NCBI GenBank assembly: GCA_000025185.1
Contig: CP001848.1
Span: 2,280,001 to 2,312,000 of the forward strand
Length of the DNA stretch: 32,000 nt
Direction: 5' to 3'
Origin: Pirellula staleyi DSM 6068
GTDB lineage: Bacteria > Planctomycetota > Planctomycetia > Pirellulales > Pirellulaceae
Part shown: positions 2,227 to 20,475 of the stretch, piece after piece
How the letters are laid out: the number at the start of each line of letters is the position of its first letter
Numbering within the stretch: position 1 is the stretch's first letter
The notes under the pieces: generated by a model
Databases searched by the model: none
Told to the model about the DNA's origin: nothing
Seen by the model: only the letters and a program-made list of their open reading frames with translations
Made by a program: the position numbers and the translations under genes

Positions 2227-5200
2227 ATGGCCAAAAGCAAATCGTGGGGAGCCAAACCGAGGCAGGACGAAGAGCGTCCGCTGCGCTATCGTTGGACTCG
2301 CCGAATCGTCCTCACGATTGCGCTGGTGGGGATGTCGATTTGGCTCGGGCAGTTGCTGCTGCGACCCTTCTGGCACCCCCGGCTGCACCTGGTTTTAGTG
2401 ACGGGCGATGCCTTTAGTACGGGCGATCAGGTGCTAGCCGCGCCGCGCTCGGATTATGTAGTCGAGGACTTTGCGGGACTGCTATCGCTGGCACCGGTGG
2501 TCCATCAATCGTCGGCTTCCAGTGGTCCGCTGATTCTTGGAAACCTGCGCAGTCGCGACGACATGCAGCGACTCGACGACGAACTGTCGAAGCTCGTTAC
2601 CGGACATCGCGACGTGTTTGTGGTATACGTCTCCGCGCAGGGGATTTCTTCAGACGGCGAAGCGTTTCTCGCCTGCAGTGAAGCTGATGCGCAAAACCCA
2701 CTTGCTGGGCAGTATCGTGTGCGCAATTTGCTCGCGCAGCTGTCCGAGCTCCAATCGCACGCCATTTTGCTCATACTCGATGCGGGTCAAACCGACTACG
2801 ACCCTGCACGGGGAATGCTCGTCAATCAGTTTCCACGTCTCTTGCGCGATGAAGTGCAGCGTTCCGGTTCCAAGAACCTATGGGTTCTCTCGTCGCACGG
2901 ACCTGGCGAGCGTTCGCACATTTCGCATGCCTTGCGGCGCTCGATTTTCAGTTACTTTGTCGAACACGGTATGGCGGGTGCTGCCGATTCGAGTGGCGAC
3001 AGCGTCGTCGATTTAAACGAACTTTTTCGCTACGTCTCGATCAGCACGGCTGCGTTCGTTGAGCAAACCACGGCTGGAAATGCCGCTCAAGCACCGCAGC
3101 TGATGTGGGGAGGTGGCGAGATCGATGCAGCGGCTCTCTCACTCGAAATCACGGCGGTCCTTCCACCCAACAGCGAGCGCCCCGTCCTCACGCCACAGCT
3201 GGAACTGACGCAGTTGCGCGAGCCATCGGCCATCGAAACGAGTGCAAAGCGGCAGGCCGAGAACGAAGTCCGATCGTACGTTCAGCAGCAGATCTCGCGG
3301 TTCAGTCCGCGCGGCCAATTGGGCTACATCGTGACCGATCGGGCACGCTCGGTGCTGGTTCAAGGTGGCAAAATCCCCACGCTTCCCGGCGTGACCCCTA
3401 CCGGAACACCAGCAGCTACCGACCCAGCCAAACCGGGTGAGACCAAGCCGGGCGATAAGCCAGCCGAAGGGGATGCAAAGAAACCGGACGCTGCAGCAGG
3501 AGATAAGCCAGCCGGTGATCAGGCCGCAGGCGACAAAGCGGGGGACAAGCCAGCTGCTGAGCCTACTGGCACGGCAACAGCCGGTGCGGAGACAAAGGGG
3601 GGAGACACTGCTGCTGATGGTCCAGCTATCGATCTGCTCCTTGCCAAAGGTTGGCAAGTTCGCGATGCGCTGCTGGCCGAAAGCTTGGGTCGCGCTCGAG
3701 GTGTTGATAGCTTGCCCCACATTTGGCGCGTACTCGAGCGACGTCTGCTCGCTTACGAACTACGTCATCGACGTGGTGCTAATGCGGGCGAGAAAGTGCT
3801 GCGTCAGAATGTTACGGAACTGGTGGGAGTACTCGAGCAATTGCAGGCCCGCGTGGCTGGCGATCAATTCCCCGCGCGAAGTTTAGGTCGTCGGATTGCA
3901 CTTTCTTATCCTGGTCTATCGGCACCCATCACGCAGGTGCGGCAACTCGCCGTGCTCGAACGCATTGCCGCAGAAGGTGGCGAGGCGATGCCTGCTGTCG
4001 CCGCAGCTGCACTCACGCAGCTCGACTACTTCACATCGCGCGGCGGTGAAGCTGATTTCCTCGAATGGGCTAAGGCTATTCCGCCGGAAGCGATGCCTTA
4101 CGAAGAGGTCCGTTTCACATCGGAAATTGCCGCGATGCAAGGGTTTGATTGGACCATTGCCCAGCAACTCTTGCGCAATCGACTGGAAGCGGAACGGATC
4201 GCTGCGATGTCGTCGCGTTACGAGGATTGGATCGGAAAACTTGTCCAAGAGACCGACCTGAAACGACGTCATCTCGAACGTGAGGTCCTCGCGGGTCTGG
4301 CTCCCAATCGCAACGATCTGCTCGAACGACTTGCGGCGCTTCAGGCCGATCTTGTGCAGCTGCGGACCAACTTAAAACTGCTCGAAGATGCGCATCGCCT
4401 GGAAGTGGAGATGCTCCATCACTTGCCCGAATATCTCTCGTGGCAAGCGTCGCGCGATGGGGCCACGCTGAAGGAGCAGTCATCCTCGACCGAGATCAGC
4501 ACGCTGGTCGATAGCCTGATCGATCTCGTCGAGCTGCGGCAATTGCCCGATCCCACCAAGCTGCCGACCCTTGCGCGACTCTTGCCCATCGTCAAGCAAA
4601 ACCGCGATACGGTTCACAACTATTTTAGCGACGACCGGATCGAGCGGCTGGTCGCGATTCCGGCAACTCCCGGGGATGCTTGGGAGATCGAGCTTCTTCT
4701 TGAAACAACACTCCCTTCAGCCGGTGGACGACAGCTGCTGCTCGATGCGTGCGGAATTGTCGATGCGGAACTTGCCAGCGGTGTCACTCTGCCCGATGTG
4801 ACGCGCGTCAGTTTGCCCACCTCAGCAGGTCGACTTCCTGCTACGGAAGTGCATCGGCGTGGTGAGCTAGCCTGGAAAATGCTGCGCCTCTTGCATCCTG
4901 ATAACAAAGAAGAATTTCCTGAACTCTCATCGCTGGAAGCTGCTTGGAAGATGATTCCGCCCGTGGAGCGTACGCGGGAAGACATTAGTGAATTTGCCGT
5001 AGCGGTCGATCAGTTTTCCGAAGAGCTCGCGTCGTTCTACCGCAACCTGCCTGGCGTGATCGAACAGCGTGCTGCTGCGGGGCAAGATTTTCGGCAAGTC
5101 GCCGATCGTAAGGCGCGCATTCGTGAACTGGCGATGATTGAGCGAGGTTGCTACTTCGTCGACTCGCGCGATGCAGCGGTGATGGCCGATCCGAGCCCCT

Positions 5201-7608
5201 CACTGCTGCTGGGTCGCGTCGATGCCTACGATCTCTTTTCGTGGCAGCGGACTCGGCTCGAACTGGCGATGGTCGATGCGCCTCCAAGTGATCTACAAAC
5301 CTTGTCGGATAAAATGCTCCGCTATCAAGCGGCAGCAGAGGCGATCCCCTTACAGCCGCCACTCGATTCGCGCCTGACGTTGCCCTTAGAAGTGGTGGGA
5401 CCTACGAGCGTTCGGCTCGCGCTTGAAAACCAAAAAGAGGCATTCCTCAACGTCACCTGGAATGGTGAAGGTGAACAGCGGGCCTGGGTAACAGCCGAGT
5501 ATGCCGATGACTTGCTAAAAATCGAAACACCGGCGACGCAGCCGATCTATCCGAGCAACTATTCCGACACGGACTTGCTGCTGCAGCGTCCCACTTTCAA
5601 GTTGCGTCGCGGGGTGAGCGAAACGCTACGGATGGTAGTCCGGCGTCAAGAGGCTTCGGCTCGTCCTTCGCGCGTGATCTTGCGATTCCATGTCGCCGGA
5701 AAGCTGCTGCGTTACGACGTGGCTGTCGATCTGCCACTTCCTGAATCGGTCGATCTGCTGGTCGATGGTGTACCAGGAAGTTTTGCCAACGACTCGGCTG
5801 GCGCTCAGCTGTTTCCGTTCCCGAATCGTTCGACGAACTATCAGCTGTCGCTCGCTAGTAGCGCCACCATCGAGCGACAAATTGCGGTCGAGATGTATAG
5901 CCTGAAATCATCGATCAAAGATCCGTTGCCTCAAGTCGCATTGAGCGATGCCGATGCCAAGAAGCTTTTCTCAGAGCTGCCAGTTGGCCCCAAAATCGCC
6001 GATTTGCCAAACGTTGCACTTCCTCCAGCGGGTCAGAATTTGCCGATTCCGTTTCCTGCTCCCCCCCCACCTCCGAAGCCGCTGAAACCAGGAGAAGTTC
6101 CCGAACCACCGCCACCACCCGACCCCAAACTGGGGACCCTATACACACCGCAAGCGATGGTCGGTGGTGTGCTGGTACTGATCCGCGAGCCGGCTGCAGG
6201 TCGCACGATCATGAAGCGACTGGAAGTAACCGCGCAGCGTCCGCAGCGCTATGTGCGGCCGCGAGTGAACTATCAGCCGGGACGACAGCGGATCGAGATT
6301 ATTGTCGACGCTGAAGACCCACGTCTGTTACCAGCGGGTGGTTCGCGCGTGCATGTGGAGGTGCTCGATCCGATCCCCTCGGAAGCGGAGCGCCGCTTAG
6401 ATGGTCAGATTCTTGCTCCTAACTTCGAAACGCAGCTGTTTGTCGAAGTGGCCGACGAACCTGGGCGCTATGTCAACATTGCAATCACGGTCGACGATTA
6501 TCCGCGAGCCTTTCTCTACCGCGTTCCTTGTAGCGCTATTGCGCTCGATGTGCCGGAAGATACCGATGCAGTGAAGGTTTCGCTCGATCCACTTCCCAAG
6601 GGTACGCTCTATAAAGCGCCAGCAGGAGAAATTCCGGTCGTGGTGCGTGTCGATGCGCCTGGTTCTTCCGGTGGCAATCCGCCGCTAGAAGTGCGTGTCG
6701 GTGTGGATCGCGATCGCGATCGAACACTCAACGACGAAGCAGCGCTACTGCTAACGAGCACCCGCGATGTAAAGTTCACTGCCAGTGCCGCAGCTCCCCT
6801 TGGTGAGTTCACGATCGACACCATCGTCAGCGATTTCAGTATTAATGTTCCCGAGAGCGGACTGCAAAGTGGTCTGGCGAACATGCTCGCGCAAGTGTCG
6901 CTCGGAGACCGGATGGGTTACAGCAATCCGATCGAAATTGTGATCGATGGAGAAGCACCTCGGATTTCGGGCGTGGAACTTTTACCCTCTCAGCTCGCTG
7001 TGATCGGCAAACCGGTGGCGGTTTCCTGCATCGCGAGCGACGACGAACTCAGCGGCGTTGCTAAGCTCGAGGTGATGTTCGACACCAACCGGAGCGGCGC
7101 GATTGGCGACGACGACAAGCCGGTGATCGCCGTCTTTCAGCCGGAAGGACGCTGGACCGCCACGGTTCCGACCGAAGGGCTGATGCGCGGGACTTACAAC
7201 CTGCTGCTACGGGCCACCGATCGCGTGGGAAATCAAAGCCCCATTTCGCGAGTGAAGGTGCAAGTCGTTTCGCCCGAGGAAGCGGGGACTGGCGAGAAAA
7301 AACTGCTCGGAACGATTACCGGTACGGTGATTCATGGGGTCACGCCACAGCCGGGAATGAAGGTTTCGCTCTGGCCGGAAGGGGCGAATCCGTACGCCAA
7401 AGTTGATCCCAAAAATCCCGAGCCGAGCAAAAAGATCACCGAAGTGGCGACTGGACCCAAAGGGACGTACGAGATCACCCGCGTGCCACCCGGTAAATAT
7501 CTGCTGGTGGGGGAGGGACTCGTGAAGAACAAGAATCGCCGGGTCGCTATCCCAGTGACGGTGGAGCCTCCTAAGCCGCTCCCGCCGATTGAGCTGAAGC
7601 TCCCTTAA
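2227..7608 (+). CDS. Giant single-pass membrane protein: degenerate caspase-like domain, long helical region, Pro-rich spacer, Ig-like and carboxypeptidase-regulatory-like beta domains
   Basis: Uninterrupted 1,793-aa ORF. Basic N-terminus plus one TM helix (IVLTIALVGMSIWLGQLLL, ~nt 2302-2358). A Peptidase_C14-like pattern lies at ~nt 2380-3112: VFVVYVSAQG...ILLILDAGQ...LWVLSSHGPGERSH...FSYFVEHGMAGAAD...VDLNELFRYV. A GDKPA low-complexity linker and the Pro-rich stretch PAPPPPPKPLKPGEVPEPPPPPDP follow. The C-terminus has an Ig-like module (~6950-7270) and GTITGTVIHG...GTYEITRVPPGKYLLVGEG (~7310-7520). Confidence 0.85.
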   Translation: MAKSKSWGAKPRQDEERPLRYRWTRRIVLTIALVGMSIWLGQLLLRPFWHPRLHLVLVTGDAFSTGDQVLAAPRSDYVVEDFAGLLSLAPVVHQSSASSGPLILGNLRSRDDMQRLDDELSKLVTGHRDVFVVYVSAQGISSDGEAFLACSEADAQNPLAGQYRVRNLLAQLSELQSHAILLILDAGQTDYDPARGMLVNQFPRLLRDEVQRSGSKNLWVLSSHGPGERSHISHALRRSIFSYFVEHGMAGAADSSGDSVVDLNELFRYVSISTAAFVEQTTAGNAAQAPQLMWGGGEIDAAALSLEITAVLPPNSERPVLTPQLELTQLREPSAIETSAKRQAENEVRSYVQQQISRFSPRGQLGYIVTDRARSVLVQGGKIPTLPGVTPTGTPAATDPAKPGETKPGDKPAEGDAKKPDAAAGDKPAGDQAAGDKAGDKPAAEPTGTATAGAETKGGDTAADGPAIDLLLAKGWQVRDALLAESLGRARGVDSLPHIWRVLERRLLAYELRHRRGANAGEKVLRQNVTELVGVLEQLQARVAGDQFPARSLGRRIALSYPGLSAPITQVRQLAVLERIAAEGGEAMPAVAAAALTQLDYFTSRGGEADFLEWAKAIPPEAMPYEEVRFTSEIAAMQGFDWTIAQQLLRNRLEAERIAAMSSRYEDWIGKLVQETDLKRRHLEREVLAGLAPNRNDLLERLAALQADLVQLRTNLKLLEDAHRLEVEMLHHLPEYLSWQASRDGATLKEQSSSTEISTLVDSLIDLVELRQLPDPTKLPTLARLLPIVKQNRDTVHNYFSDDRIERLVAIPATPGDAWEIELLLETTLPSAGGRQLLLDACGIVDAELASGVTLPDVTRVSLPTSAGRLPATEVHRRGELAWKMLRLLHPDNKEEFPELSSLEAAWKMIPPVERTREDISEFAVAVDQFSEELASFYRNLPGVIEQRAAAGQDFRQVADRKARIRELAMIERGCYFVDSRDAAVMADPSPSLLLGRVDAYDLFSWQRTRLELAMVDAPPSDLQTLSDKMLRYQAAAEAIPLQPPLDSRLTLPLEVVGPTSVRLALENQKEAFLNVTWNGEGEQRAWVTAEYADDLLKIETPATQPIYPSNYSDTDLLLQRPTFKLRRGVSETLRMVVRRQEASARPSRVILRFHVAGKLLRYDVAVDLPLPESVDLLVDGVPGSFANDSAGAQLFPFPNRSTNYQLSLASSATIERQIAVEMYSLKSSIKDPLPQVALSDADAKKLFSELPVGPKIADLPNVALPPAGQNLPIPFPAPPPPPKPLKPGEVPEPPPPPDPKLGTLYTPQAMVGGVLVLIREPAAGRTIMKRLEVTAQRPQRYVRPRVNYQPGRQRIEIIVDAEDPRLLPAGGSRVHVEVLDPIPSEAERRLDGQILAPNFETQLFVEVADEPGRYVNIAITVDDYPRAFLYRVPCSAIALDVPEDTDAVKVSLDPLPKGTLYKAPAGEIPVVVRVDAPGSSGGNPPLEVRVGVDRDRDRTLNDEAALLLTSTRDVKFTASAAAPLGEFTIDTIVSDFSINVPESGLQSGLANMLAQVSLGDRMGYSNPIEIVIDGEAPRISGVELLPSQLAVIGKPVAVSCIASDDELSGVAKLEVMFDTNRSGAIGDDDKPVIAVFQPEGRWTATVPTEGLMRGTYNLLLRATDRVGNQSPISRVKVQVVSPEEAGTGEKKLLGTITGTVIHGVTPQPGMKVSLWPEGANPYAKVDPKNPEPSKKITEVATGPKGTYEITRVPPGKYLLVGEGLVKNKNRRVAIPVTVEPPKPLPPIELKLP
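3430..3560 (+). repeat. Imperfect in-frame tandem motif encoding GDKPA-type low-complexity linker
   Basis: Three near-copies: ggcgataagccagcc (3451-3465), ggagataagccagcc (3499-3513) and ggggacaagccagct (3541-3555). The peptide is KPGDKPAEGDAKKPDAAAGDKPAGDQAAGDKAGDKPAAE. Confidence 0.6.
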
Positions 7609-8003: not shown

Positions 8004-9482
8004 ATGAAGCTTTCTTCGTGCCAGGCGATTGCCCTTGCGATGATGATATTCGTCGCACTCGGCTGCCGAAGCGCGCAGACAGCTCCCGCCGCACCGCCGG
8101 GGGCCACCGATTTGCCCACCAGCGCCACGGCCAACGGTCAAACGATCGTGGCCATTGCGCCACCGGCTCAGGCATGCTGTCCCCAACCAACACTTCCCGA
8201 AAAGCTCGGCATCACCGGCCTGTTTAAAGGGATTGGCGGACTGATCGACCGGATTCGTAACCGTCTTGGTTCGCGATTCCCAGGACTCGAAGCCAAGCCT
8301 CCCGTCCTTGCCATCACCGATCCTGCCAACGCCGAGTCGTCGAACCCTGCGGTGGCTGCTGCCGCTGGTGCTAAAGCGGAAGAAGATGCTGCCGCACAAA
8401 AGGTGAAAGCGATTCGCTACCTCGGTTCGCTGGGGTGTGGAGGTTGCTATCCCGATGTGGAGCCGGCACTGCTGGCCGCTCTGGACGACTGCACAGAAGC
8501 GGTGCGCTACGAGGCTGTTCTCGCGCTCCGCAAGAGTGGCGGCGATCCTTGCAAGAACTGCCAGAAGGATGCCTGCTGCAGCGACAAGGTGCGCGAGAAG
8601 CTCGACAAAATTGCCAACGGCATGGACGATCAGGGTTGCTACTTCGAAGCCTCGGATCGGGTGCGCCGCAACGCTCGCCTTGCACTTTGCTACTGTGGCG
8701 GCCCTACCTCTCCCCAGATGCAGCAGACTTTGCCTCAGGAAGGCCCCAGTGAAGAGATTCCCCCCGCCACTGCACCAGCAGCAGGCGCGGTCTCGATTCC
8801 CAAGAGCCAAGTGGAAATGGTTGCCGAACGCATCGAACGAAGCGTAATCGCCAGCAAGCAAGCCAACACGACAACTGGCGGTGTCAATCGACAAGTGGCT
8901 TACGATCAAGCGACCGGCAGCGTGACGGAAGTTCGCTGGGAGCAACTCTCGGCTCGCATCGACCAGTTTGCTTCGCGGGCCGATGCTGCTGGCATGATGA
9001 ACCTGGTCCGAACGCATGTGCTCACCGCCGGTGGGCCGCTTCCTCCGGAACTCACTTCGCGAGCCCTCGAAGTGGCACGGTTCGATTGGACCAACGCCGA
9101 GCGTCTCGTCTCACGACCACTCGCTTCCGCTTTGGCAACCACGCAAGTCGGTGGACTCAGCCTGGTGTGGGAAGAGAATGGCCGACTTTGGATGGTGCGG
9201 GTTCTCGAACGACGGAAAGTCAACCTGGTGCAGCCAGCTTCGTACTCGCAGCCTGTGGCTCCTTCGCGTGACCAAGCGGCTGGTGTGTCGGCTCAGCCTC
9301 GTGCATCGGCTCCCGTGGGGACGTCCGCTCCCGCACCTCGCGGCACCATTCAAGCAGCACCGGCATCTGCACCAGCGCCAGCCAATGGCGGCGGAGTTTC
9401 CGCAGCCGATAATGCGGCTCCTGCTCGTGCACCGGTCGTATTCACCACGCGCGTTGTTCCTTGTAACTGCAACCAGCATTAG
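8004..9482 (+). CDS. Cys-rich lipoprotein with HEAT-like repeat and a possible degenerate parvulin-like C-terminal region
   Basis: 492 aa. The signal peptide ends in a lipobox-like FVALGC|RS. HEAT-like pattern: AIRYLGSLG...EPALLAALDDCTEAVRYEAVLALRKSG. Paired cysteines occur throughout (ACC, CGGC, CKNC, ACC, CYC, PCNC). The C-terminal stretch FDWTNAERLVSRPLASALATTQVGGLSLVWEENGRLWMVRVLERR loosely resembles a PpiC-type PPIase core; this is a weak assignment. Confidence 0.8.
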   Translation: MKLSSCQAIALAMMIFVALGCRSAQTAPAAPPGATDLPTSATANGQTIVAIAPPAQACCPQPTLPEKLGITGLFKGIGGLIDRIRNRLGSRFPGLEAKPPVLAITDPANAESSNPAVAAAAGAKAEEDAAAQKVKAIRYLGSLGCGGCYPDVEPALLAALDDCTEAVRYEAVLALRKSGGDPCKNCQKDACCSDKVREKLDKIANGMDDQGCYFEASDRVRRNARLALCYCGGPTSPQMQQTLPQEGPSEEIPPATAPAAGAVSIPKSQVEMVAERIERSVIASKQANTTTGGVNRQVAYDQATGSVTEVRWEQLSARIDQFASRADAAGMMNLVRTHVLTAGGPLPPELTSRALEVARFDWTNAERLVSRPLASALATTQVGGLSLVWEENGRLWMVRVLERRKVNLVQPASYSQPVAPSRDQAAGVSAQPRASAPVGTSAPAPRGTIQAAPASAPAPANGGGVSAADNAAPARAPVVFTTRVVPCNCNQH

Positions 9483-9655: not shown

Positions 9656-12600
9656 ATGGCCTCACAACAATCTGCCTCGAGCCGTGGTGCCAGTGCCAAA
9701 CGCGGCGGATGGAAAGGGGCCACGACCACAGTCGTCGAGACTCCTCATCGCTGGCAAAGTGGTGCCGCTCCAGGTCGTACTACCGCAGGTCCCACCTGGG
9801 GCCGCTATCGTCGCACTCGCGTGATGATCCTAGGCATCATCTCGATTTGGCTTATTGGCCTGCTGGTGTGGTATCTCTTGTTCCGCCCCGCCATGACACC
9901 GATGGTCACTGTCGTTGCGACCCGCTACGACATGCCACTGCCACCCAACAGCTGGGCTACGGAAGATCTGCGGGGGATCAAGGAACTCGATAGTCAAACC
10001 TTGCGATTGTTCGACGGCAGCGCCGCTTGGGAATCGGAAGAACGTGGCATTCGGCAACTCGAACAGCATCTGAAATCGGCCAAGCCGCGCATCGAACGTA
10101 GCGGCATGCTGATGCTCTACTGGAGCATGCCAGGCTGTGTGGATGACGAGGGGCAACCCTGCTTTATTCCTCCCGGCGCATCTCCCCATCGGAGTGAAAC
10201 ATGGCTGCCACTTGCCGATGTGCTCGAGGAGATCAAAAAACAAGATCTGCCAACGAGCGTGCATAAGCTGATGATTCTGGACGTATCGCGCGAGCGAGCG
10301 AACTGGAGCGTCGGCATGCTCACCACCACCTTCCCAGCGGCTGTGGAGAAGGTTGTCAATCAATCGGGCATTCCGAATTTGGCGATCTTGCTCTCGGCTA
10401 GCCCTGGTCAAGCAGCGGTGGCATCGACTGAACTGCGCGGCACTGTTTTCGGCCGCGCGATGACGATTGGTCTCGCCGGAGCTGCTGATGCCCGCGCCTC
10501 GGGGGGCAACGGTAACGGGCGAGTTTCGCTCCACGAACTGCTGCACTACACCACCGATCGCGTAGAAAAATGGACCAAAGCGCATCGCGGTTTGCCCCAA
10601 CAGCCGATGCTGGTTCCATCGACTACTCCCGACGTGAATTTGGCCTACGCGATGAGCACGTCGAGCTGGCGCAAGCTCGATGCACAAAGCAAACGCCAAG
10701 AGTCGGCACCTCCGGTTGTGGCAGTGGCGACCCTCACCAAACTTTGGAAAACACACGATCGCCTCGCTGCTGAACGGGTCTATCGTTTCGATCCGATTGG
10801 GTGGCGTCATTTTCAGCATCAATTGCTTCGTCTCGAACAGCTGACGACCGCTGGCGATGCTTACCGACAGCAGGCGATTGATCTGGCGACGCAGCTCAGC
10901 AGCCAGTGCGACGCGCTCGATAGTCGTCTTGCGGCGGCAATGGTTCGGCCGTCGATCTTCAGCTACTCGCAAGTGATGACCCCGACTCCGGATAAGCTTT
11001 CGCCCGGTCGCTCGCTACCGTCGCTCGGAACTGCAGACTTGCTGGCAAGCGTCGTACCACAGCAGTCGCGACTCGTGCGCGAACAGCTGAGTCTCGTCGC
11101 CTCGCAGCCGACCGAAAATGGAATCGTGGAAGCACTCCGCGTGATCGAGGAGGCTAAGCTTCCAACCGATCCGGTGGAAGTTCATTTTCTGCGTCTCGTT
11201 GCACGGTTTCATGTGCCGCAGCTGTGGAGCAGTTCCACGGTTGTCGGCAAAGCGATTGACGTTCGCCGTCGCGCATCGGAACTTGCAATTCAGCGTGGCG
11301 ATATCACCCTGCTTGGTGATGAACGTGCCTATGCACTTTCGCGCGGGGAACGGATTGATTCCGATCGTGCGCGGCGCATGGCCGAAGATCTGTTGCTAGC
11401 CGGCAATGCGGCAGCTGGCGTTGATGCAAGTTCGCTCTACACTTCCGCCGAAACGGCGCTCGCCTCTTCTCAGCAGGCCTACCTCGATGCGGCCATCTCC
11501 TTGGCAAGTCGCGATGAAGCGTGGTCGGAAGCGATCTACTTTGCCAAGTGGCTCGCCGAGCCGCAGACCAGCCAGGCCGATCAGCGGAGCGCCGACGATG
11601 CGATTCGAACCGAACTGCTCCCGATGATTAGCGCCTTGCGCCGGTTCGATGAAGCGACCTCACGCTCCGAGAATCAGGATGTCACTAGTTCACGATTCGA
11701 TGCCACCAGCAGTGCTCAATTAACAGCCGCCCATCGCGCACTTCACGAGCGTTTGAAGAAGGCGATTGCCGCCGCGACGGGTGGTAAAGGGACTGATGCG
11801 GCCAACGTCAATAAACTCGAGAATCTGCTCACCCTACCGATGATTCCGTGGCTGCAGCGCGACGCACTGCGCCGGAAGTTGACCGAAACTTTGGGCGAGC
11901 TCGAAACCTTGGCGGCAGCACCACCCGTTCCCAAAACTGGTGAAGAGCAAGTGGCCGAACCACCAGCCGACCAGATGGCTCGCTTGGAGTCGTCGTGGAC
12001 CGTGCACCCGCTCATCGCCGCCTTGTCGCTGGAATCGGAAGCGTCGATCGTTGCGAGCGATCCGCTCCCCGGTTCGACCGATAAGCCAGCTGTCACTACA
12101 CCCACGAGCATCGAAGCTCCCGTTTCGCAGGCCAACCCAACGACCCCACCTGCGCTCGATTTGAGTTTGCCAACCTCTCCCGATATTGCCATCGACGGCG
12201 AGCTCTTCTCGGCGGATGGAAAAGTAGAGACCAAGGAGTTTGCTACTTCGCAAACAGCCGATGCGCCGAAGCCTCAAGCAACGGCGCAGGAGAAGGGGGA
12301 GAAGAGCGATCCAGAGGCCACCAATCCATCGCAGTTGTTCGCCACCCTCGATAAACAAGCGGCAGTGATTCGCGCACGGTTGATGCGACTGAGTGCCCCC
12401 GAGCTGATTGTGCTCCCCGAACTGGCAGCGAGTGCTACGGAGTCGAGTGTTCGAACACGCGCGAGCCTCAGTGGCTGGTCGGACCTCTGCAAAACCGACT
12501 CGCTGCTGCGAGCCGCTGCTCCGCTCTGGTTTCCTGCACCTGTCGACGATCCCATCGGACGTCTCCGCAGCCGCGATCTTCAGCAACTGCTGCTCGCCGA

Positions 12601-14878
12601 AGCGGATCGGGCGCTGGTCGACTTCTATGGTCCCCCGGCACCGCGCCGCGAGCCATTTTTCGCGACCGCAACTTCACAGCTCCTTTCGCTGGCGCGTGAA
12701 ATCGATCCTCCCACCACCACCATTCAGTCGCAGTTCGAGCAGCTTGGCGATTTGCTCAATCGTCGTACCGAAGCAGCTCGCTCTGCCGTCGCAGTATCGG
12801 CATCGGATATTCTGCTGATCGATCAAACCCCGAGCGTCACATCGCAGGTGCGCATCAGCGCTCCGGTCCCTGCCATTGCAGCTTCCTTGCCAGAGGCAGA
12901 AGCGGCCATCTACTTCACCGACGACCAAGGGCGCGTTGGAAGCACGGCCCGCATTCTCGACACCAAGTCGCTGATGACGCAGTCGAACCCCGTAGCATGG
13001 GAGTCGGTTTTTGTCGCAGCAGGGCTCGAATCGCGCGGACCACTCATGGCGGCTGTGGCGAATGTTCGTGGCAACGAATTCGCCGCTCCACTGCTGCTGC
13101 GAGCGGCAGGTGGCAAACGCATTGAGTTCGCCAAACCAACCTATGGACCACCGACCGTCACCATTCACGGATTTCGTCGTCGTCAGGCATCGGTCGTGTT
13201 CGTACTCGACTGCAGTCATACGATGAAGGCACTCGATGAAGTGGAATCGCCCGATGGTGGTGTGCGTGCTACATCGCAGCGGATGGAGCTTGCCAAAGGT
13301 GCGCTGCGAAGCATGCTTACGCAGCTCGCTGAACGGGGCGATGCACGCGTGGGAGTTCGATTTTTCGGTCATCGAGTCGGCTGGAGTACCGTCGAGGCGA
13401 ATAAACTACTGCGGCAAAATCGCTATGCAGGTGAAATTCCGCCCGAACTTCAGCCTTATGCCGACGTCGAAAACATTCTTCCTTTGGGACGATTCGACAG
13501 CGTGATTGCGGGGCGTGTGTTTGAGGCGATGAAAACGGTCGAGCCGTGGGGTGAATCGCCGATTTACCTTTCGATCACCGAAGCCTTGCGCGACTTTGCG
13601 CAGGAAGATGGCGAGAGCGAGAAGAGCATTGTCGTCATCACCGACGGCAAAAACTATCAGTTCAACGCACCTTCGCAGCTGGCACGCACGAAGGACGACG
13701 TCCTCGCAGCGCGAGGGAGCCGCGATATCAAAGTGCATATCGTGGGATTCAACATCGAGCCTAGCGAGTCGGAAGTCGCCTCGCGCGAGTTCCGCGAAAT
13801 TGCCGAAGCAACCGGGGGTGAGTTTTTGCCAGCTACTAGCGCTGGATCACTCGTCCGTTCGCTGGAATCGGTGCTACGCGCGGCCGAGTTCACCGTCGCA
13901 AGCACAGGCGATGGCTCGTCGCAATCGGCTCGCATCGGCAGCACGCTGACACTCCCCAAGATCAACGCCCCTCAAACTTTTGCAGCTGAGTTCGAAGCGG
14001 CCAAGCAAGAGCTGCTGCTGAGTGGCGGCGAAGCGGTGGAACTCAACGTGGCCCGCAATGGGACGCGTCTCGAAGTGCCACCTTTCCTTAAAGGCTCGCC
14101 GAAGTTCGTCCGATTGGCACCTGTCGTACGTGGTCAAGCGACCGGCATTCAGGTTGGCATCCACCGTCCGGTGCGACAAGAGGGACGTGTGATCGTTCCG
14201 ATGTCGCTGCAGGACAGTGATCAGTATTTCGTCACCCGCCCGGTGGAATGGTGGGTGGAAGTTCGCCCGCGACAAGCCTCCAGCGAAAGTGAGCCATCGG
14301 GCTACTACTTTTACGATCCGATCTACGAAGCTGAAAAATCGGTTCCGCTGTGGAACTGCGTTGCCAACAACTGGCCAACCAGCGCGCGGCAAGCTGAGAT
14401 CACTACCTTCTGCAAATTTGCGAAGACCAATCCCACGGTTGCAATTCCGCTGCTCGAGGTCGCGGGAACTCCCCCACCATCGCCGGCCGGTTTCCCGGTT
14501 GAAGGGATGACCGGGGTCACCTATCAGGCTCGCTATGTTCACGACGAAGCGAGTGGGCGGTTGCAGGTCGGAATTGTGGAGCGTCATTCCAGCAGCTCGC
14601 TGGGGGTTGGTTCACTGAAGGTCTCGCTGTCGCTAAGCCCCAAGTCGGCAGTCCATCAATTCGATTCCGAGAACGGGATTGTGCTCCATACGTTCGATTT
14701 CGAGCGTGTTCCGACAGCCGACCTCGGATCGATGGTGATCCATTTCACCTCGCGCGAAGACCTTCGCAGCGGAGCGATCGAGCTAACCGAACCGGTGATT
14801 CTCGACATCGCCGACCGTAGCGATTTGATTGGACCTCAGCCGATCACCAATGAGCAAACGACCGGCGGAATCCGCTAA
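9656..14878 (+). CDS. Giant single-pass membrane protein, paralogue of 2227-7608: degenerate caspase-like domain, helical region, von Willebrand factor A domain, beta-rich C-terminus
   Basis: Uninterrupted 1,740-aa ORF with an ATG start. A 55-aa Ser/Thr-rich basic tail precedes a TM helix (VMILGIISIWLIGLLVWYLLF, ~nt 9821-9883). Caspase-like pattern at ~9899-10630: MLMLYWSMPG...KLMILDVSRE...LAILLSASPGQAAVAS...FGRAMTIGLAGAAD...VSLHELLHYT. vWA domain at ~13180-13880, with the MIDAS-like VVFVLDCSHT (D at 13208, S at 13214, T at 13220) and IVVITDGKNY. Confidence 0.9.
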   Translation: MASQQSASSRGASAKRGGWKGATTTVVETPHRWQSGAAPGRTTAGPTWGRYRRTRVMILGIISIWLIGLLVWYLLFRPAMTPMVTVVATRYDMPLPPNSWATEDLRGIKELDSQTLRLFDGSAAWESEERGIRQLEQHLKSAKPRIERSGMLMLYWSMPGCVDDEGQPCFIPPGASPHRSETWLPLADVLEEIKKQDLPTSVHKLMILDVSRERANWSVGMLTTTFPAAVEKVVNQSGIPNLAILLSASPGQAAVASTELRGTVFGRAMTIGLAGAADARASGGNGNGRVSLHELLHYTTDRVEKWTKAHRGLPQQPMLVPSTTPDVNLAYAMSTSSWRKLDAQSKRQESAPPVVAVATLTKLWKTHDRLAAERVYRFDPIGWRHFQHQLLRLEQLTTAGDAYRQQAIDLATQLSSQCDALDSRLAAAMVRPSIFSYSQVMTPTPDKLSPGRSLPSLGTADLLASVVPQQSRLVREQLSLVASQPTENGIVEALRVIEEAKLPTDPVEVHFLRLVARFHVPQLWSSSTVVGKAIDVRRRASELAIQRGDITLLGDERAYALSRGERIDSDRARRMAEDLLLAGNAAAGVDASSLYTSAETALASSQQAYLDAAISLASRDEAWSEAIYFAKWLAEPQTSQADQRSADDAIRTELLPMISALRRFDEATSRSENQDVTSSRFDATSSAQLTAAHRALHERLKKAIAAATGGKGTDAANVNKLENLLTLPMIPWLQRDALRRKLTETLGELETLAAAPPVPKTGEEQVAEPPADQMARLESSWTVHPLIAALSLESEASIVASDPLPGSTDKPAVTTPTSIEAPVSQANPTTPPALDLSLPTSPDIAIDGELFSADGKVETKEFATSQTADAPKPQATAQEKGEKSDPEATNPSQLFATLDKQAAVIRARLMRLSAPELIVLPELAASATESSVRTRASLSGWSDLCKTDSLLRAAAPLWFPAPVDDPIGRLRSRDLQQLLLAEADRALVDFYGPPAPRREPFFATATSQLLSLAREIDPPTTTIQSQFEQLGDLLNRRTEAARSAVAVSASDILLIDQTPSVTSQVRISAPVPAIAASLPEAEAAIYFTDDQGRVGSTARILDTKSLMTQSNPVAWESVFVAAGLESRGPLMAAVANVRGNEFAAPLLLRAAGGKRIEFAKPTYGPPTVTIHGFRRRQASVVFVLDCSHTMKALDEVESPDGGVRATSQRMELAKGALRSMLTQLAERGDARVGVRFFGHRVGWSTVEANKLLRQNRYAGEIPPELQPYADVENILPLGRFDSVIAGRVFEAMKTVEPWGESPIYLSITEALRDFAQEDGESEKSIVVITDGKNYQFNAPSQLARTKDDVLAARGSRDIKVHIVGFNIEPSESEVASREFREIAEATGGEFLPATSAGSLVRSLESVLRAAEFTVASTGDGSSQSARIGSTLTLPKINAPQTFAAEFEAAKQELLLSGGEAVELNVARNGTRLEVPPFLKGSPKFVRLAPVVRGQATGIQVGIHRPVRQEGRVIVPMSLQDSDQYFVTRPVEWWVEVRPRQASSESEPSGYYFYDPIYEAEKSVPLWNCVANNWPTSARQAEITTFCKFAKTNPTVAIPLLEVAGTPPPSPAGFPVEGMTGVTYQARYVHDEASGRLQVGIVERHSSSSLGVGSLKVSLSLSPKSAVHQFDSENGIVLHTFDFERVPTADLGSMVIHFTSREDLRSGAIELTEPVILDIADRSDLIGPQPITNEQTTGGIR

Positions 14879-15962: not shown

Positions 15963-18020
15963 ATGGCACGTGCACTCACGTTTACGTCTCCGCTAGGTCC
16001 CGACAAGTTCGTCCTTCAGTCGATGGAAGCTTACGAGGAACTGGGACGCTTGTTTGAATACAAGCTGCGGCTCCTCAGCAAAGATGGCGCGATCAAGCTC
16101 GACGATTTGATCGGCAAGAACGTGACGATCAGCGTCGAGCTAGTCGATGGCCGAACACGCTATTTCAATGGCGAAGTAGCGGAATTCGAGCAGATCACCG
16201 AATCGTTCCAAGACTACTTCGTCTACGTGGCGATTGTACGTCCAGAGCTGTGGTACCTTTCGCTCACCGCCGACTGCAAGATCTTTCAGCAGAAGACAGC
16301 GGTCGACATCATCAAGGCGGTGCTCGGCGATGGAGCGGTGACGTATCGGACATCGCTCAGCAAGACCTATCGGACCCTCGAATACTGCGTCCAGTACAAC
16401 GAGTCGGACTTCAACTTCGTCAGTCGCCTGATGGAGCAGGAAGGTATCTACTACTTCTTCGAGCATGCCCAAGGCACCCATAAGATGGTGCTGGCCGATT
16501 CCATTTCGGCGCACAAGGCGATCGAAGGGGAAGCCAGCATCGCTTACATGTCGCGTCGCGATGGCTTCGACGACGACACCGATCATGTGTTCGACTGGAA
16601 AGTGCGACACAAAGTCCGCACCGGTGTTTGGGCGCACACCGATTTCGACTTCGTCAAACCCAAGTCGAACCTCGAGGCCAAATCACAAATCGTTCGATTG
16701 CACCCCCAGTCGTCCAACGAAGTCTTCACCTATCCCGGTTCCTACACCGTCGTAGCTGATGGTACGGGCTATGCCCGTAACCGCATTGAAGAAGAGCACA
16801 CCGTTCACGATGTGGTCGTTGGTCGCACCAATGCACTCCAGATGGCTGTCGGTGGACTCTTCACCCTCACCGACTATCCACGGGCCGATCAGAACGTCGA
16901 GCATTTGATCACCATGATCAACATGGTCTTCAAGCAAGAGATCGAGACCGCTGGTGGAGCGGTGCAAGGGACCGTCGACACCAAGCTCGGCGTTTTCATC
17001 GAGCATCAATTTGGAGCGCTCGAGAAATCGAAGCCCTTTCGTGCTGCCTGGACCACTCCCCGGCCGATCGTACGTGGCCCGCAAACTGCGATTGTCGTGG
17101 GTAAAGCAGGGGAAGAAATCTGGACCGATCTGTATGCCCGTGTGAAAGTGCAATTTCACTGGGATCGCTACGGTCAGAAAAATGAAAACAGCAGTTGCTG
17201 GCTCCGTGTGGGGCAAGTTTGGGCGGGGCCTGAGTGGGGCGCGATTCACATTCCCCGCATCGGTCAGGAAGTGATTGTCGACTTCCTGGAAGGTGACCCC
17301 GATTGTCCGATCGTGACGGGGCGTGTGTACAACGGCGACAACATGCCTCCGTATGCGCTCCCCGCGAATCAAACGCAAAGTGGTATCAAGAGTCGCTCGA
17401 GCAAGAGCGGCACCGCGCAGAATTTCAATGAACTCCGGTTTGAGGACAAAAAAGATTCCGAGCATATCTATTTCCATGCGGAAAAAGATTTCACTCGCAT
17501 CGTCGAGAACAACGACGTCCTAAAGGTCGGCTTCGACAAAAAGCAAGCCGGCGATCAAACGATCGACATCTATAACAATCGCACCACCACGATCGAGCAA
17601 GGTAACGAGAAACTGCAGGTCAAGGTCGGTAATCGCGAGACTCTCGTCGATACCGGTAACGACACGCATGTGGTCAAGACCGGCAATCGTGAGACGACGG
17701 TGACCACTGGTAACGACACGCACACCATCAGCACCGGCAATCGAGAAGTCACGGTTTCGAAAGGCAACGATACCCTGACGGTAACCACGGGAAATATGAC
17801 AGTGACGGTGACAGCCGGCACATGCAAAATCACAGCGGGGACCGCAATCGAACTGATCTGCGGTGGCAGCTCGATCAAGATGACCCCCTCGTCGATTGCG
17901 ATCGAATCTCCCACCATCAACATCAAGGCGAGTGGCACTTTGAATGCCGAATCCCCCGCAACAACCGTCAAGGGGACCGGCATGCTCACCTTGCAAGGTG
18001 GCGTCGTGAAGATCAACTAG
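15963..18020 (+). CDS. vgrG: Type VI secretion system spike protein VgrG (canonical, no C-terminal effector extension)
   Basis: 685 aa. Typical VgrG opening: ALTFTSPLGPDKFVLQSMEAYEELGRLFEYKLRLLS. gp5 OB-fold core: RVGQVWAGPEWGAIHIPRIGQEVIVDFLEGDPDCPIVTGRVYNGDNMPPYALP. Also NELRFEDKKDSEHIYFHAEKD. A C-terminal beta-helix of TGNDTH/TGNRET repeats ends LTLQGGVVKIN. Confidence 0.95.
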   Translation: MARALTFTSPLGPDKFVLQSMEAYEELGRLFEYKLRLLSKDGAIKLDDLIGKNVTISVELVDGRTRYFNGEVAEFEQITESFQDYFVYVAIVRPELWYLSLTADCKIFQQKTAVDIIKAVLGDGAVTYRTSLSKTYRTLEYCVQYNESDFNFVSRLMEQEGIYYFFEHAQGTHKMVLADSISAHKAIEGEASIAYMSRRDGFDDDTDHVFDWKVRHKVRTGVWAHTDFDFVKPKSNLEAKSQIVRLHPQSSNEVFTYPGSYTVVADGTGYARNRIEEEHTVHDVVVGRTNALQMAVGGLFTLTDYPRADQNVEHLITMINMVFKQEIETAGGAVQGTVDTKLGVFIEHQFGALEKSKPFRAAWTTPRPIVRGPQTAIVVGKAGEEIWTDLYARVKVQFHWDRYGQKNENSSCWLRVGQVWAGPEWGAIHIPRIGQEVIVDFLEGDPDCPIVTGRVYNGDNMPPYALPANQTQSGIKSRSSKSGTAQNFNELRFEDKKDSEHIYFHAEKDFTRIVENNDVLKVGFDKKQAGDQTIDIYNNRTTTIEQGNEKLQVKVGNRETLVDTGNDTHVVKTGNRETTVTTGNDTHTISTGNREVTVSKGNDTLTVTTGNMTVTVTAGTCKITAGTAIELICGGSSIKMTPSSIAIESPTINIKASGTLNAESPATTVKGTGMLTLQGGVVKIN
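17601..17815 (+). repeat. In-frame octapeptide-periodic repeats forming the VgrG beta-helical needle
   Basis: Recurrent ggtaacgac acgca / ggcaatcg(t/a)gag units encode GNEKLQVKVGNRETLVDTGNDTHVVKTGNRETTVTTGNDTHTISTGNREVTVSKGNDTLTVTTGNMTVTVT. Confidence 0.7.
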
Positions 18021-18095: not shown

Positions 18096-19049
18096 ATGCG
18101 GATAACGCTTCAAGTGACGGCTGGTCCTGAAAAGGGGCGCAAGGTTTATCTGCAGCAAGGGCAGACCGCGCGCTTCGGACGGACAGAATGGGCCGACTTC
18201 AGCTTCCCGAAAGATAAGCAGCTTGCCGACGAGCATTTTCTGCTCGACTACGGCCGCACCAACCTGAAGCTCAAAGCGCTCGGCGCTGATCGCATTGTGA
18301 AGGTCAACGGCGCTCCTGTCGCCGAGATACAGCTGAACCATGGCGACAATATCGAAGCAGGCGAGACCACGCTGCAAGTGTTGTTCGCGGGACAGCCGAT
18401 GCCGATCTCGCCTGCTGCAGCAGCCGCAGCCGCCGCAGCGCTGGCCGCTTCCGCCGAGGAAGCCGAAAAAAACAAAGTCCGGCTTCCGATCCATCTGTGT
18501 GAGGAGCTGGAGTTCGGGGACGACGAAGCCGATCTGGCCAACACCTGCACCACCGATCCCGAGTGGATCGACAAACTGGCGGCCAACCAAAAGTTTTCTT
18601 CCGCGCTCCGCGTGCAAGCTTTTTTGCTACCCCAACGCGAGGCGGTCTGGTGGGCCGCACAAATGGTCGACCAAACCATGGGGGCCAAGCTCAAGCCAGC
18701 TGATGCCGCCGCTTATGCCGCTGGTCTTGCCTGGGCGCTCGATCCCAATGAAGACTACCGTCGCGATGCAGAACGTGCCGCCGCGAAGACCAAATGTGAT
18801 GGACCCGGCAGCTGGGTGGCGCTGGCAGCTTTTTGGAGTGGCGACTCCATCGCGCCGGTCGAGATCGACCCCGTGAAGCCCGACCACCGCTTGACCTCGC
18901 AGGCCGTTGCGACAGCGATGGTCATTTCGGCCTATCAAGAGAAATCGGCACCTCCGGCGACTCGTTTCGCCCGCTATTTGGCGGTGGGACGCGATATTCA
19001 GGAGGGCAAACTCAAAATGCCGACAGAAGCTGCCAAGCCGACCAAGTAA
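18096..19049 (+). CDS. FHA-domain protein with poly-Ala linker and unassigned alpha-helical C-terminal domain
   Basis: 317 aa. It starts 75 nt after the vgrG stop. FHA pattern in residues ~1-97: ARFGRTEWADFSFPKDKQLADEHFLL...LKALGADRIVKVNGAPV...LNHGDNIEAGETTLQVLF. Linker: PAAAAAAAAALAASAEEAEK. The ~190-aa C-domain contains REAVWWAAQMV...AAGLAWALDPNEDYRRDAERAA...WVALAAFWSG, which I cannot assign to a family. Confidence 0.9.
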   Translation: MRITLQVTAGPEKGRKVYLQQGQTARFGRTEWADFSFPKDKQLADEHFLLDYGRTNLKLKALGADRIVKVNGAPVAEIQLNHGDNIEAGETTLQVLFAGQPMPISPAAAAAAAAALAASAEEAEKNKVRLPIHLCEELEFGDDEADLANTCTTDPEWIDKLAANQKFSSALRVQAFLLPQREAVWWAAQMVDQTMGAKLKPADAAAYAAGLAWALDPNEDYRRDAERAAAKTKCDGPGSWVALAAFWSGDSIAPVEIDPVKPDHRLTSQAVATAMVISAYQEKSAPPATRFARYLAVGRDIQEGKLKMPTEAAKPTK

Positions 19050-19234
19050 GGCCCCTCTCGATTGTTTTCGCGAGTTCGTGCTGCCTGCTATCCGGTGGAC
19101 TTTCGTCAATCCCATGCCCCATCCGGGTAGATTCCCAGTGGGGTCTTAGCGTATTTTAAGAGCTACCGTGCAGTGCTGGCCTCTAGCGCTTCCGAGCTTT
19201 TTTGGTAACAAGAGTCCGCAGGAATCGTTCTCTT

Positions 19235-20296
19235 ATGTCCATGCCCGCTTCGCTCCAATCCCGCTATCGGATGATTCGCGAGATTGGCCAAGGTTCGTTC
19301 GGAGTGGTCTATCTGGTCGAGGATTTGCAAACCTCCGAGCAGCGGGCACTAAAAGTTCTCCTTCCTTGGGCTGCTGCTGACGAAAAGCTTCGGCATCGCT
19401 TACGCCGCGAAGCTCGGCTAGCTTCTAGCCTTACTGGCAAACATGTCGTTCGCACCTATGAAGTGGGCGAGACCCCCGATCCGAACGTCTACTTGGTGAT
19501 GGAGTACCTCGAAGGGCGCGATCTCACCGAGGTGCTAGACGCCGAAAATAAGCTCACTCCTACGCGGGTCGAGTCGATTGCGCGGCAAATGCTGGTAGCG
19601 CTCAGTGACGCCCATCGCATGGGGATTGTGCACCGCGATCTCAAGCCGCAGAACGTTTTTCTCTGTCCCACGCCCGATGGGGGCGAAGTGGTCAAAGTCT
19701 TCGATTTTGGGATCGCCAAGGTGACCGGTGCGGGGGCACTCACGGAAACTGCCAAGCTGACGATCTCCGGCGGTGTGATGGGAACACCTGCCTACATGAG
19801 TCCCGAGCAATGCCGGGGAGAAATGCTGACCCCCAGCAGCGATCTCTATTCGCTAGGGATCTTGCTCTACGAACTCCTGACCGGCAACGTGCCGTTTGAT
19901 CACGATAATCCGGTGCAAATTTTGCTGATGCACCATAGTAAACCCGCCCCGCCACTCCCGCCGGAGATTGCCTGGACCCACTTGGGAAAGGCCATCATGC
20001 ACGCTCTGGAAAAGAACGCCGACGACCGTTTTGCATCGGCCGACGAATTCCTGGCGGTCCTTAACGGCCAGCCTGTCCCCCCGCGAGCCCCTCAGAAAGC
20101 TCCTCCTGAGGCAAAGAAAACGCCGCAGGCAGCTCCCAAAGGAAATCCGGAGCCCGTACTCACGAAGTCGGCCACTGAGGTCGATCCGTACGCGAATATG
20201 GTACCTCCCAGCTCAGCTTGGAAGATTTGGGTACTTCTCCTCGTCGTCCTGGTGCTTGGGAGCGCCGGAGCTGCTGCGGTCTACTTCCTGAAATAA
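19235..20296 (+). CDS. Hanks-type Ser/Thr protein kinase, C-terminally membrane-anchored, no sensor ectodomain
   Basis: G-loop IGQGSFGVVYLV, VAIK-type Lys in RALKVL, catalytic loop HRDLKPQNVF, DFGIAK, GTPAYMSPE. A Pro/Lys-rich linker precedes the terminal TM helix WKIWVLLLVVLVLGSAGAAAVYFLK*. The ORF track starts at TTG 19202; the ATG at 19235 (MSMPASLQSRYRMIREIG) is the more likely start. Confidence 0.9.
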   Translation: MSMPASLQSRYRMIREIGQGSFGVVYLVEDLQTSEQRALKVLLPWAAADEKLRHRLRREARLASSLTGKHVVRTYEVGETPDPNVYLVMEYLEGRDLTEVLDAENKLTPTRVESIARQMLVALSDAHRMGIVHRDLKPQNVFLCPTPDGGEVVKVFDFGIAKVTGAGALTETAKLTISGGVMGTPAYMSPEQCRGEMLTPSSDLYSLGILLYELLTGNVPFDHDNPVQILLMHHSKPAPPLPPEIAWTHLGKAIMHALEKNADDRFASADEFLAVLNGQPVPPRAPQKAPPEAKKTPQAAPKGNPEPVLTKSATEVDPYANMVPPSSAWKIWVLLLVVLVLGSAGAAAVYFLK

Positions 20297-20475
20297 GAGA
20301 GAAGCTCGAGCCCAGCTGGCCACATTGAGCTAAATTGTCTCATCAGTTGGGAACCTGGGATTGGGTTGCTCGCAAGCGGGCAACTGCTATCATCCAGCCA
20401 GTATTAGGAGGCAAATGCCGCCGCTGCACGACGCAGCTGCGCAAAGGGTTGCCTCCCGCTCAAAGGAGCACGCAC

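Follow-up and report, generated by a model that had tools for sequence, protein, structure and literature searches.

Caspase-fold pseudo-proteases are already known in bacteria. The pseudo-orthocaspases of cyanobacteria and phototrophic Alphaproteobacteria carry a p20-type domain in which the catalytic dyad is replaced by Tyr/Ser and which is presumed to be non-proteolytic; they are conserved in photosynthetic lineages, and photosynthesis is the setting in which they have been discussed (Klemencic et al. 2019, PMC6426788). Caspase-like domains, some of them without catalytic residues, are also present in secreted polymorphic toxins and in large surface proteins, and inactive caspase-like repeats are known among the toxins (Zhang et al. 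2012, PMC3482391). The protein considered here, named G1, is encoded in a 32,000-nucleotide window of the Pirellula staleyi DSM 6068 genome (contig CP001848.1, positions 2,280,001 to 2,312,000), at window positions 2227-7608 on the forward strand (+); its open reading frame (ORF) translates into a single-pass membrane protein of 1,793 amino acids, which belongs to an unnamed family of Planctomycetota. Like the pseudo-orthocaspases, it possesses a p20-type domain with a substituted His-Cys dyad; however, the G1 family shows His or Gln together with Gly instead of Tyr/Ser, and it is found in Planctomycetota rather than in phototrophs, on giant, predicted membrane-anchored and periplasmic proteins linked to type VI secretion system (T6SS) genes. 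In a term search of PMC6426788, Planctomycetes, transmembrane anchors, secretion and glycine did not occur. We propose, with a probability of roughly 0.6, that G1 serves in the periplasm, close to the membrane, as a pseudo-protease scaffold within an atypical T6SS envelope complex.

The Peptidase_C14 proteases, or orthocaspases (PF00656; NF047832), are similar to G1 in fold and in the order of the strand-loop motifs. The corresponding G1 domain, a degenerate, Peptidase_C14-like pseudo-caspase, comprises residues 45-300 (2359-3126, +), and the caspase-fold module proposed by the first-pass annotation at 2380-3112 falls within it. An AlphaFold2 model of residues 45-300, obtained with a 52-sequence family alignment as input, reached a predicted local distance difference test score (pLDDT) of 88.6 and a predicted template-modelling score (pTM) of 0.89; the family alignment was required, since prediction from the single sequence was unusable (pLDDT 41.6). 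When this model was compared with the PDB by Foldseek, the 50 best matches were all MALT1 paracaspase or caspases-7, -3, -8 and -9, with E-values from 1.4e-10 to 4e-7, probability 1.00 and template-modelling scores of 0.53-0.61; MALT1 leads the list (E 1.4e-10, 0.57-0.61), followed by caspases-7, -3, -9 and -8. Structure prediction and Foldseek thus returned the caspase fold and not a different one. Sequence identity to these best structural matches is only 9-16% and, unlike them, the G1 domain lacks the catalytic dyad, is bacterial and is predicted to be periplasmic. Caspase-fold domains work as dimers, and in the pairing of the dead c-FLIP with caspase-8, represented among the Foldseek matches of the G1 model by structure 3h11, there is a known case of an inactive paralogue that functions by dimerising. 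Dimerisation of G1 is a conjecture.

Homology of the G1 domain to Peptidase_C14 is clear by profile comparison. The family profile was aligned by hhalign with P0153, a 466-residue protein annotated with PF00656 that came from a profile search of the word-indexed database, at a probability of 98.9% and an E-value of 4e-17 (proteins and homologous loci are given by our own P and L numbers). G1 itself lies below every curated Pfam or NCBIfam threshold for C14: Pfam Peptidase_C14 (PF00656) gave no match to G1 even at E<=10, and NCBIfam NF047832 (caspase, EACC1-associated type) matched residues 108-271 at E 8.9e-7 but scored only 28.6 bits, far short of the 140 that its cut-off requires. PF00656 was found weakly in 10 of the 52 family members (best E 5.7e-5). 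Searches of PDB sequences with phmmer and with a two-sequence profile gave only noise, and the 52-sequence profile picked up only an EF-hand-like loop, through EF-hand proteins at E 0.0077. This loop, D254-S-S-G-D-S-V-V-D-L-N-E265 in G1 (2986-3021, +), is the trailing motif of the domain and is inherited from bacterial C14 domains: the pattern G-x-A-D-x-N/D-x-D-x-x-V-x-L-x-E-L is common to C14 and G1, and the loop, of the form D-x-S-x-D-x-x-x-D-x-x-E, is present in P0153 and P0154, both bona fide C14 proteins, and in the paralogue G2 (residues ~275-295; see below). EF-hand_1 was matched in 7 of the 52 family members, and the loop may bind Ca2+.

The main departure from Peptidase_C14 concerns the dyad, as the family has Gly in place of Cys and G1 itself also has Gln in place of His. 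The codons had been read correctly in the first-pass annotation: CAG at 2638-2640 (+) specifies Q138 in VYVSAQGI and GGT at 2785-2787 (+) specifies G187 in LILDAGQ. In the hhalign alignment with P0153, Q138 is opposite the His of 'YSGHG' and G187 opposite the Cys of 'IDACFSG'; hmmalign, applied to 28 copies of the family drawn from 25 loci and to P0153 and P0154, two controls that both retain His/Cys, gave the same dyad columns. The hhalign comparison with human caspase-3 was used as a register check only: its E-value of 0.18 is non-significant alone, and its register (SHG/QACRG) agrees. Since the hhalign and hmmalign registers agree, Q138 and G187 occupy the catalytic positions, so that the claimed replacement of both residues, His by Gln and Cys by Gly, is confirmed, and the profile alignment shows no intact His/Cys pair at the canonical positions of the domain. 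An intact pair elsewhere was sought among C150, H224 and H231 and was rejected, as these residues are off the dyad positions and variably conserved. C150 (2674-2676, +) stands where the C14 'LLPxD' motif has its Pro; Cys is found there in 55 of 80 sequences, and many members have Ala, Gly, Trp, Ser or Val instead, while H231 is replaced by Arg, Tyr, Leu, Cys, Ala or Pro in various members.

Loss of the nucleophile is not peculiar to G1. The Cys column is never Cys among the 28 family copies and, in a broader tally of 119 sequences (G1 plus 118 representatives clustered at ≤50% identity), it contains Gly in 101, Ala in 6, Ser in 5 and Cys in 2; Gly is thus found in about 85% of the family, and these counts indicate that the loss of the nucleophile is ancestral to it. 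The His column, conversely, contains His in 79 sequences, Gln in 21 and other residues in 19. His-to-Gln is therefore a recurrent minority state in a family without the Cys; a change of the third base is sufficient for it, and Gln is also present in L010, L018 and L024. In the giant proteins of L019 and L023, which are distant members, a Cys is found one residue before the canonical nucleophile, in the sequences L-D-C-N and F-D-C-S; it may be a relic, a thiol that can still be used or the result of a shift in the alignment.

Although the dyad is missing, no other block of the protein is as well conserved as this domain: mean identity to G1 is 0.38-0.46 for residues 101-300, versus 0.19-0.28 for residues 401-1300. 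Directly after the former Cys strand, the loop of C14 proteins is replaced by a family-specific motif, D192-P-x-x-G-M-x-V-N-x-F-P-R-L-L206 (2800-2844, +), which is among the most conserved stretches (G196 in 79/80 and F202 in 76/80 sequences) and has no counterpart in the bona fide C14 protein P0153 in the hhalign comparison. The family-wide loss of the nucleophilic Cys, together with the change of His to Gln, should preclude canonical cysteine-protease action; and because Cys is absent in 117 of 119 sequences while the domain stays the best conserved, a non-proteolytic role, as the first-pass annotation had proposed, is the most economical reading of the sequences. Of the 80 conserved positions, 16 (between G1 residues 74 and 289) depart from the family consensus in G1 and its closest relative, P0002. 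Several charged sites are among them (H138Q, R162Q, K180I, R194A and D215S), a pattern that would suit the neutralisation of a conserved basic patch in this lineage.

The same alignments bear on the proposal that the domain is an enzyme with a non-canonical site, built from C150 with H231 or H138, or from Ser230-His231, and acting in autoprocessing or in peptidoglycan or envelope remodelling where the T6SS is inserted. Such a site would draw on residues that are well represented among 80 sequences, namely C150 (55), S230 (68), H231 (61), E228 (60) and D185 (72), and the displaced Cys of L019 and L023 could be read in its favour. However, none of these five residues is invariant, G2 has Pro and Val at the positions of C150 and H231, G1 lacks His138 and is off consensus at four charged sites (R162Q, K180I, R194A, D215S), and Gly at the canonical nucleophile position means that the thiol has been removed; enzymatic activity of this kind is accordingly very improbable.

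The family escaped notice in word-indexed homologue searches, which yielded only one and then five proteins, and was exposed by an exhaustive profile search over 1.84 billion cluster representatives, with 280 representatives matching at E<1e-30 and 1,293 at E<1e-10. The top 150 matches are mostly proteins of 1,400-1,900 residues in which the matching region is N-terminal, at residues ~50-300, and the source names seen for family members are 'hypothetical protein' or no name at all. All 20 taxonomically labelled homologues are from Planctomycetota, mostly Pirellulales; in the GTDB genome collection, all ten homologues are metagenome-assembled genomes of Planctomycetota, mostly Pirellulales or Pirellulaceae. 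Genomic homologues were located with a 7-sequence alignment, the 52-sequence one being too divergent for pattern design, and a genome scan with G1 alone as single query found no homologues. Similarity extends beyond the pseudo-caspase: tblastn gave full-length matches in other loci (for example 31% identity over 1,874 columns in L004), and the C-terminal 480 residues of G1 are well conserved across loci, at 36-42% identity. In two long-contig assemblies (L001, 10001-15450; L009, 9680-15314) the giant gene is split into several ORFs, for example of 422 and 998 amino acids; these breaks are probably assembly frameshift errors and not true truncations.

A further difference from Peptidase_C14 is that the G1 domain lies behind a signal-anchor transmembrane helix and is followed by about 1,500 further residues. 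A Kyte-Doolittle scan of the whole protein predicts a sole transmembrane helix at residues 27-45, IVLTIALVGMSIWLGQLLL (2305-2361, +). The preceding tail (residues 1-26; 2227-2304, +) contains nine Lys/Arg and three Asp/Glu and is predicted to be cytoplasmic by the positive-inside rule, the 25 residues after the helix having two Lys/Arg; the same helix and charge pattern is present in G2 and in the L019 and L021 homologues. The C-terminal region (7036-7509, +) gave sub-threshold Pfam and NCBIfam hits of beta-sandwich type: a weak Big_13/OmpL47-type Ig-like match at residues 1604-1680 and a weak CarboxypepD_reg-like match at residues 1722-1761, both below the curated cut-offs. The full-length family profile also matched beta-sandwich domains of NOMO2, SdrD and Bap in the PDB. 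A low-complexity linker rich in Pro, Ala, Gly, Lys and Asp, read from the translation at residues ~385-470 (3379-3636, +), is the block of lowest identity and most gaps in the family comparison, and a poly-proline stretch, PPPPPKPLKPGEVPEPPPPPDP, is found at residues ~1283-1310 (window ~6070-6150); both may be flexible spacers.

The single helix, the positive-inside bias and the C-terminal beta-sandwich matches together make an N-in orientation with the remainder in the periplasm the best prediction, by which about 1,750 residues would lie in this compartment. The extracytoplasmic location given in the first-pass annotation is thus supported as a prediction, while its further statement that this would be unusual for a caspase fold does not hold. 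Gingipains and clostripain are also extracytoplasmic. The C14 homologues P0153 and P0154 start with signal-peptide-like N-termini, as read directly from their sequences, and secreted or surface-exposed caspase-like domains are described among polymorphic toxins (PMC3482391).

The genomic setting of the giant genes points to the T6SS. For Rhodopirellula baltica, of the Pirellulales, a large number of T6SS genes has been reported (PMC5394234). T6SS core genes adjoin the giant gene in 14 of the 19 loci with enough flanking sequence, at distances of 0.3-7 kb; in these loci, identity between the giants is only 25-40%, and the local gene arrangement takes at least three forms. In L001 and L009, the giant is divergently adjacent to tssB-tssC-hcp-hcp-impE. 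In L011, L012 and L017-L023, it is divergent to tssK-tssL-tssM, 300-550 bp away, and the long-enough contigs of this set continue with a sigma factor gene, tssA, tssB and tssC. The locus of P0002 (L024), whose product is 74% identical to G1, has the gene order of the window with an additional upstream VipA-VipB fusion gene; gene calling there gives one fusion product of 595 residues for the two sheath proteins, VipA (TssB) and VipB (TssC) (L024, 6284-8071, +).

The TssM homologues encoded beside the giants are unusual in a way that bears on the possible role of the giants. All six (L011, L017, L018, L019, L021 and L023) consist of two N-terminal transmembrane helices, an IcmF-related_N cytoplasmic domain and a third transmembrane helix, and end within 30 residues of the latter; they measure 533-611 codons from stop to stop (for example L021, 5819-7456, -). 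A canonical TssM is about twice as long, and its large periplasmic domain binds the lipoprotein TssJ, as in the TssJLM complex of enteroaggregative Escherichia coli. Since the six proteins end after the third helix, the periplasm-spanning part is missing from TssM where giants are encoded. The analogy between G1 and the TssM periplasmic domain with TssJ is functional only: linkage to tssK/tssL and a lipoprotein alongside are common to both, and an inner-membrane anchor with a large periplasmic region is predicted for G1 as well, whereas there is no detectable sequence similarity and G1 is composed of a pseudo-caspase, a helical region and Ig-like domains. The idea that a diverged TssM periplasmic domain makes up the central or the C-terminal part of G1 was considered and found no sequence support, either in the Pfam scan or in the comparison of the full-length profile with the PDB.

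Given that the dead domain is the best-conserved one and that the adjacent TssM lacks its periplasmic domain, we infer that the pseudo-caspase is a membrane-proximal assembly or binding module. G1 would be a single-pass inner-membrane protein of a Planctomycetota T6SS locus with a short cytoplasmic tail, and the domain following its helix descends from bacterial Peptidase_C14 (orthocaspase-like) proteases, with the fold kept and the nucleophile lost. Homo-oligomerisation is one way in which the module could work, and association with the paralogue G2 is another; the surface formed by the D-P-x-x-G-M-x-V-N-x-F-P-R-L-L motif might engage a partner.

Several points weigh against this reading. His still occupies its column in 66% of the family, and conservation of C150, S230 and H231 is moderate to good, so that a non-canonical catalytic or ligand-binding site may persist. 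The topology of G1 is a prediction from the transmembrane helix, the charge bias and weak beta-sandwich matches, and any contact of G1 with TssL, TssM, the baseplate or the outer membrane is conjectural. Neither IcmF (TssM) nor TssJ was matched in G1 by Pfam or NCBIfam, and none of the PDB matches of the full-length family profile with E<=1 is described as part of the T6SS. Moreover, tssK, tssL and tssM are absent from the window, and the argument from the short TssM is therefore borrowed from related loci. Finally, five of the 19 informative loci have no nearby T6SS gene, and the two annotated exceptions, L004 and L008, are flanked by housekeeping genes such as those for LpxK and DNA polymerase III delta. 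These two loci, like the resemblance of the C-terminal domains to the adhesin modules of SdrD and Bap, would suit the view that the adjacency is incidental and that G1 is a generic planctomycetal surface or envelope protein, for instance adhesin-like with Ig-like domains. A T6SS is expected at about one copy per genome, however, and for such a system chance is not plausible as the source of a linkage that recurs in 14 of 19 loci across giants so divergent and in at least three arrangements; this view is hardly credible.

Within the window, G1 is placed between a PAAR gene and a vgrG gene. A PAAR-domain protein of 124 amino acids (1447-1821, -; PF05488, E 1.2e-16) divergently adjoins G1, an arrangement also present in L024, and the VgrG/TssI spike protein is encoded at 15963-18020 (+), with 622 bits against a cut-off of 186 for TIGR03361 and E 1e-99 for Pfam Phage_GPD. 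This is a typical effector position, and G1 might consequently be regarded as T6SS cargo, a giant polymorphic-toxin-like effector loaded via PAAR/VgrG, with the caspase-like domain as a degenerate module of processing-peptidase type; polymorphic toxins of several secretion systems, the T6SS among them, do contain domains of this kind, part of which lack catalytic residues (PMC3482391), and this survey is the only place in the literature searched where we found T6SS described together with caspase-like domains. The toxins also resemble G1 in having caspase-fold (clan CD) modules in very large bacterial proteins, extracytoplasmic in the toxins (PMC3482391) and predicted to be so in G1. Their caspase-like domains are usually upstream of a variable C-terminal toxin, whereas G1 has an N-terminal signal-anchor helix with a strong positive-inside bias, the conserved C-terminus described above, no toxin domain or known T6SS effector marker in Pfam or NCBIfam, and synteny with structural T6SS genes, nine other loci pairing the giant divergently with tssK-tssL-tssM and not with vgrG. 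As no conserved immunity-like small ORF is found downstream either, an effector role is distinctly unlikely.

The scaffold reading can be extended to the genes which follow G1. On the same strand, these are, in order, a HEAT-repeat protein, G2, a 165-residue ORF, VgrG, an FHA/DUF6931 protein and a Ser/Thr kinase. G2 (9656-14878, +), about 2 kb downstream of G1 and detected by a tblastn cross-match to the G1 domain, is a paralogue of 1,740 amino acids built on the same plan. Its transmembrane helix covers residues 58-76 and its degenerate caspase domain residues ~81-322; hhalign aligned the latter with the family profile at a probability of 99.3% and an E-value of 1e-20. According to hhalign and hmmalign, P159 (CCA, 10130-10132, +) occupies the position of the catalytic His and S211 (TCG, 10286-10288, +) that of the catalytic Cys; orthologues beside G1 have His/Asn in L021 and Pro/Ser in L024. 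Residues ~1180-1390 of G2 gave borderline VWA-like matches, just below the cut-offs. The protein between G1 and G2 (492 amino acids; 8004-9482, +) shows weak HEAT matches and starts with a lipoprotein-type signal peptide, MKLSSCQAIALAMMIFVALGC|RS (…FVALGC|RS); it has orthologues in L024 and L021, where the whole trio of G1, G2 and HEAT-repeat protein recurs. By analogy, the HEAT-repeat lipoprotein is a candidate functional counterpart of TssJ.

The two genes after vgrG bring in a different explanation. The first encodes a protein with an FHA-type domain (Yop-YscD_cpl) and DUF6931 (18096-19049, +), the second a Ser/Thr protein kinase with a C-terminal transmembrane helix at residues 342-360 of 364 (19202-20296, +), the former assigned by domain matches and the latter by domain matches and a hydropathy scan. 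The pair resembles a module for controlling the T6SS by threonine phosphorylation; a gene for a phosphatase was not seen in the window. Thus, G1 and G2 could be periplasmic sensors or regulators of T6SS firing, similar to the TagQRST-PpkA-Fha system, with the pseudo-caspase as a ligand or peptide receptor signalling to the FHA protein and the membrane-anchored kinase. The periplasmic sensor part of Pseudomonas aeruginosa PpkA is a VWA domain, which the borderline VWA-like signal in G2 would match; a remodelled binding pocket would be in keeping with the His or Gln that is kept, with the Gly conserved at the Cys position and with the conserved loop that follows, and the EF-hand-like loop hints at Ca2+ dependence. 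However, the cytoplasmic tail of only ~26 residues has no recognisable signalling domain, a length of 1,500-1,900 residues, including long stretches of helical and Ig-like character, exceeds what a sensor needs, kinase and FHA genes are not beside the giants in most other loci, and a sensor would leave the TssM without a periplasmic domain unexplained. We therefore regard a sensor function as unlikely.

If G1 is instead a scaffold, the part of the membrane complex that spans the envelope, which TssM and TssJ provide in Proteobacteria, would come from G2, the HEAT lipoprotein and the long remainder of G1 with its helical and beta-sandwich regions. In its widest form, which we put forward tentatively and hold to have somewhat less than even odds, the proposal is that the T6SS of Planctomycetota possesses a new envelope-spanning complex, in which TssM is reduced to its membrane and cytoplasmic portions, one or two giants (G1, G2) and the HEAT lipoprotein replace the TssM periplasmic domain and TssJ, and the dead caspase domains mediate oligomerisation or hetero-oligomerisation. 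This would be a use of a pseudo-protease inside a bacterial secretion machine resembling that of c-FLIP with caspase-8, and the length of the giants could be an adaptation to the wide and variable planctomycetal periplasm.

The remaining genes of the window noted here are of other kinds. A class I methyltransferase gene (286-1389, -), conserved in L024, adjoins the PAAR gene, and a voltage-gated-type ion-channel gene (20335-21408, +; Ion_trans, E 4e-48) directly follows the kinase gene. Two sulfatase genes are found further downstream (26438-28027, -, and 28758-31172, +); such genes are regarded as typical of Pirellulales genomes.

In the searchable literature, the coverage of which is incomplete, we found no description of the G1 family or of a T6SS membrane complex in Planctomycetota, nor any characterisation of the T6SS of this phylum. 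Beyond the caspase-fold pseudo-proteases already known from bacteria, a new T6SS envelope architecture is a possibility. The role of dead bacterial caspase homologues is largely obscure, and the G1 family offers a concrete, testable context for them beside T6SS genes. Contractile injection systems of this type are anchored by TssJLM in Proteobacteria and by TssNOP in Bacteroidota; if the giants do replace the periplasmic half of TssM, they would represent a further solution for anchoring such a system in the envelope, one in which a protease fold has been recruited as a structural module. The analysis also gives a name and a working hypothesis to at least 280 clusters of proteins of ~1,800 residues.

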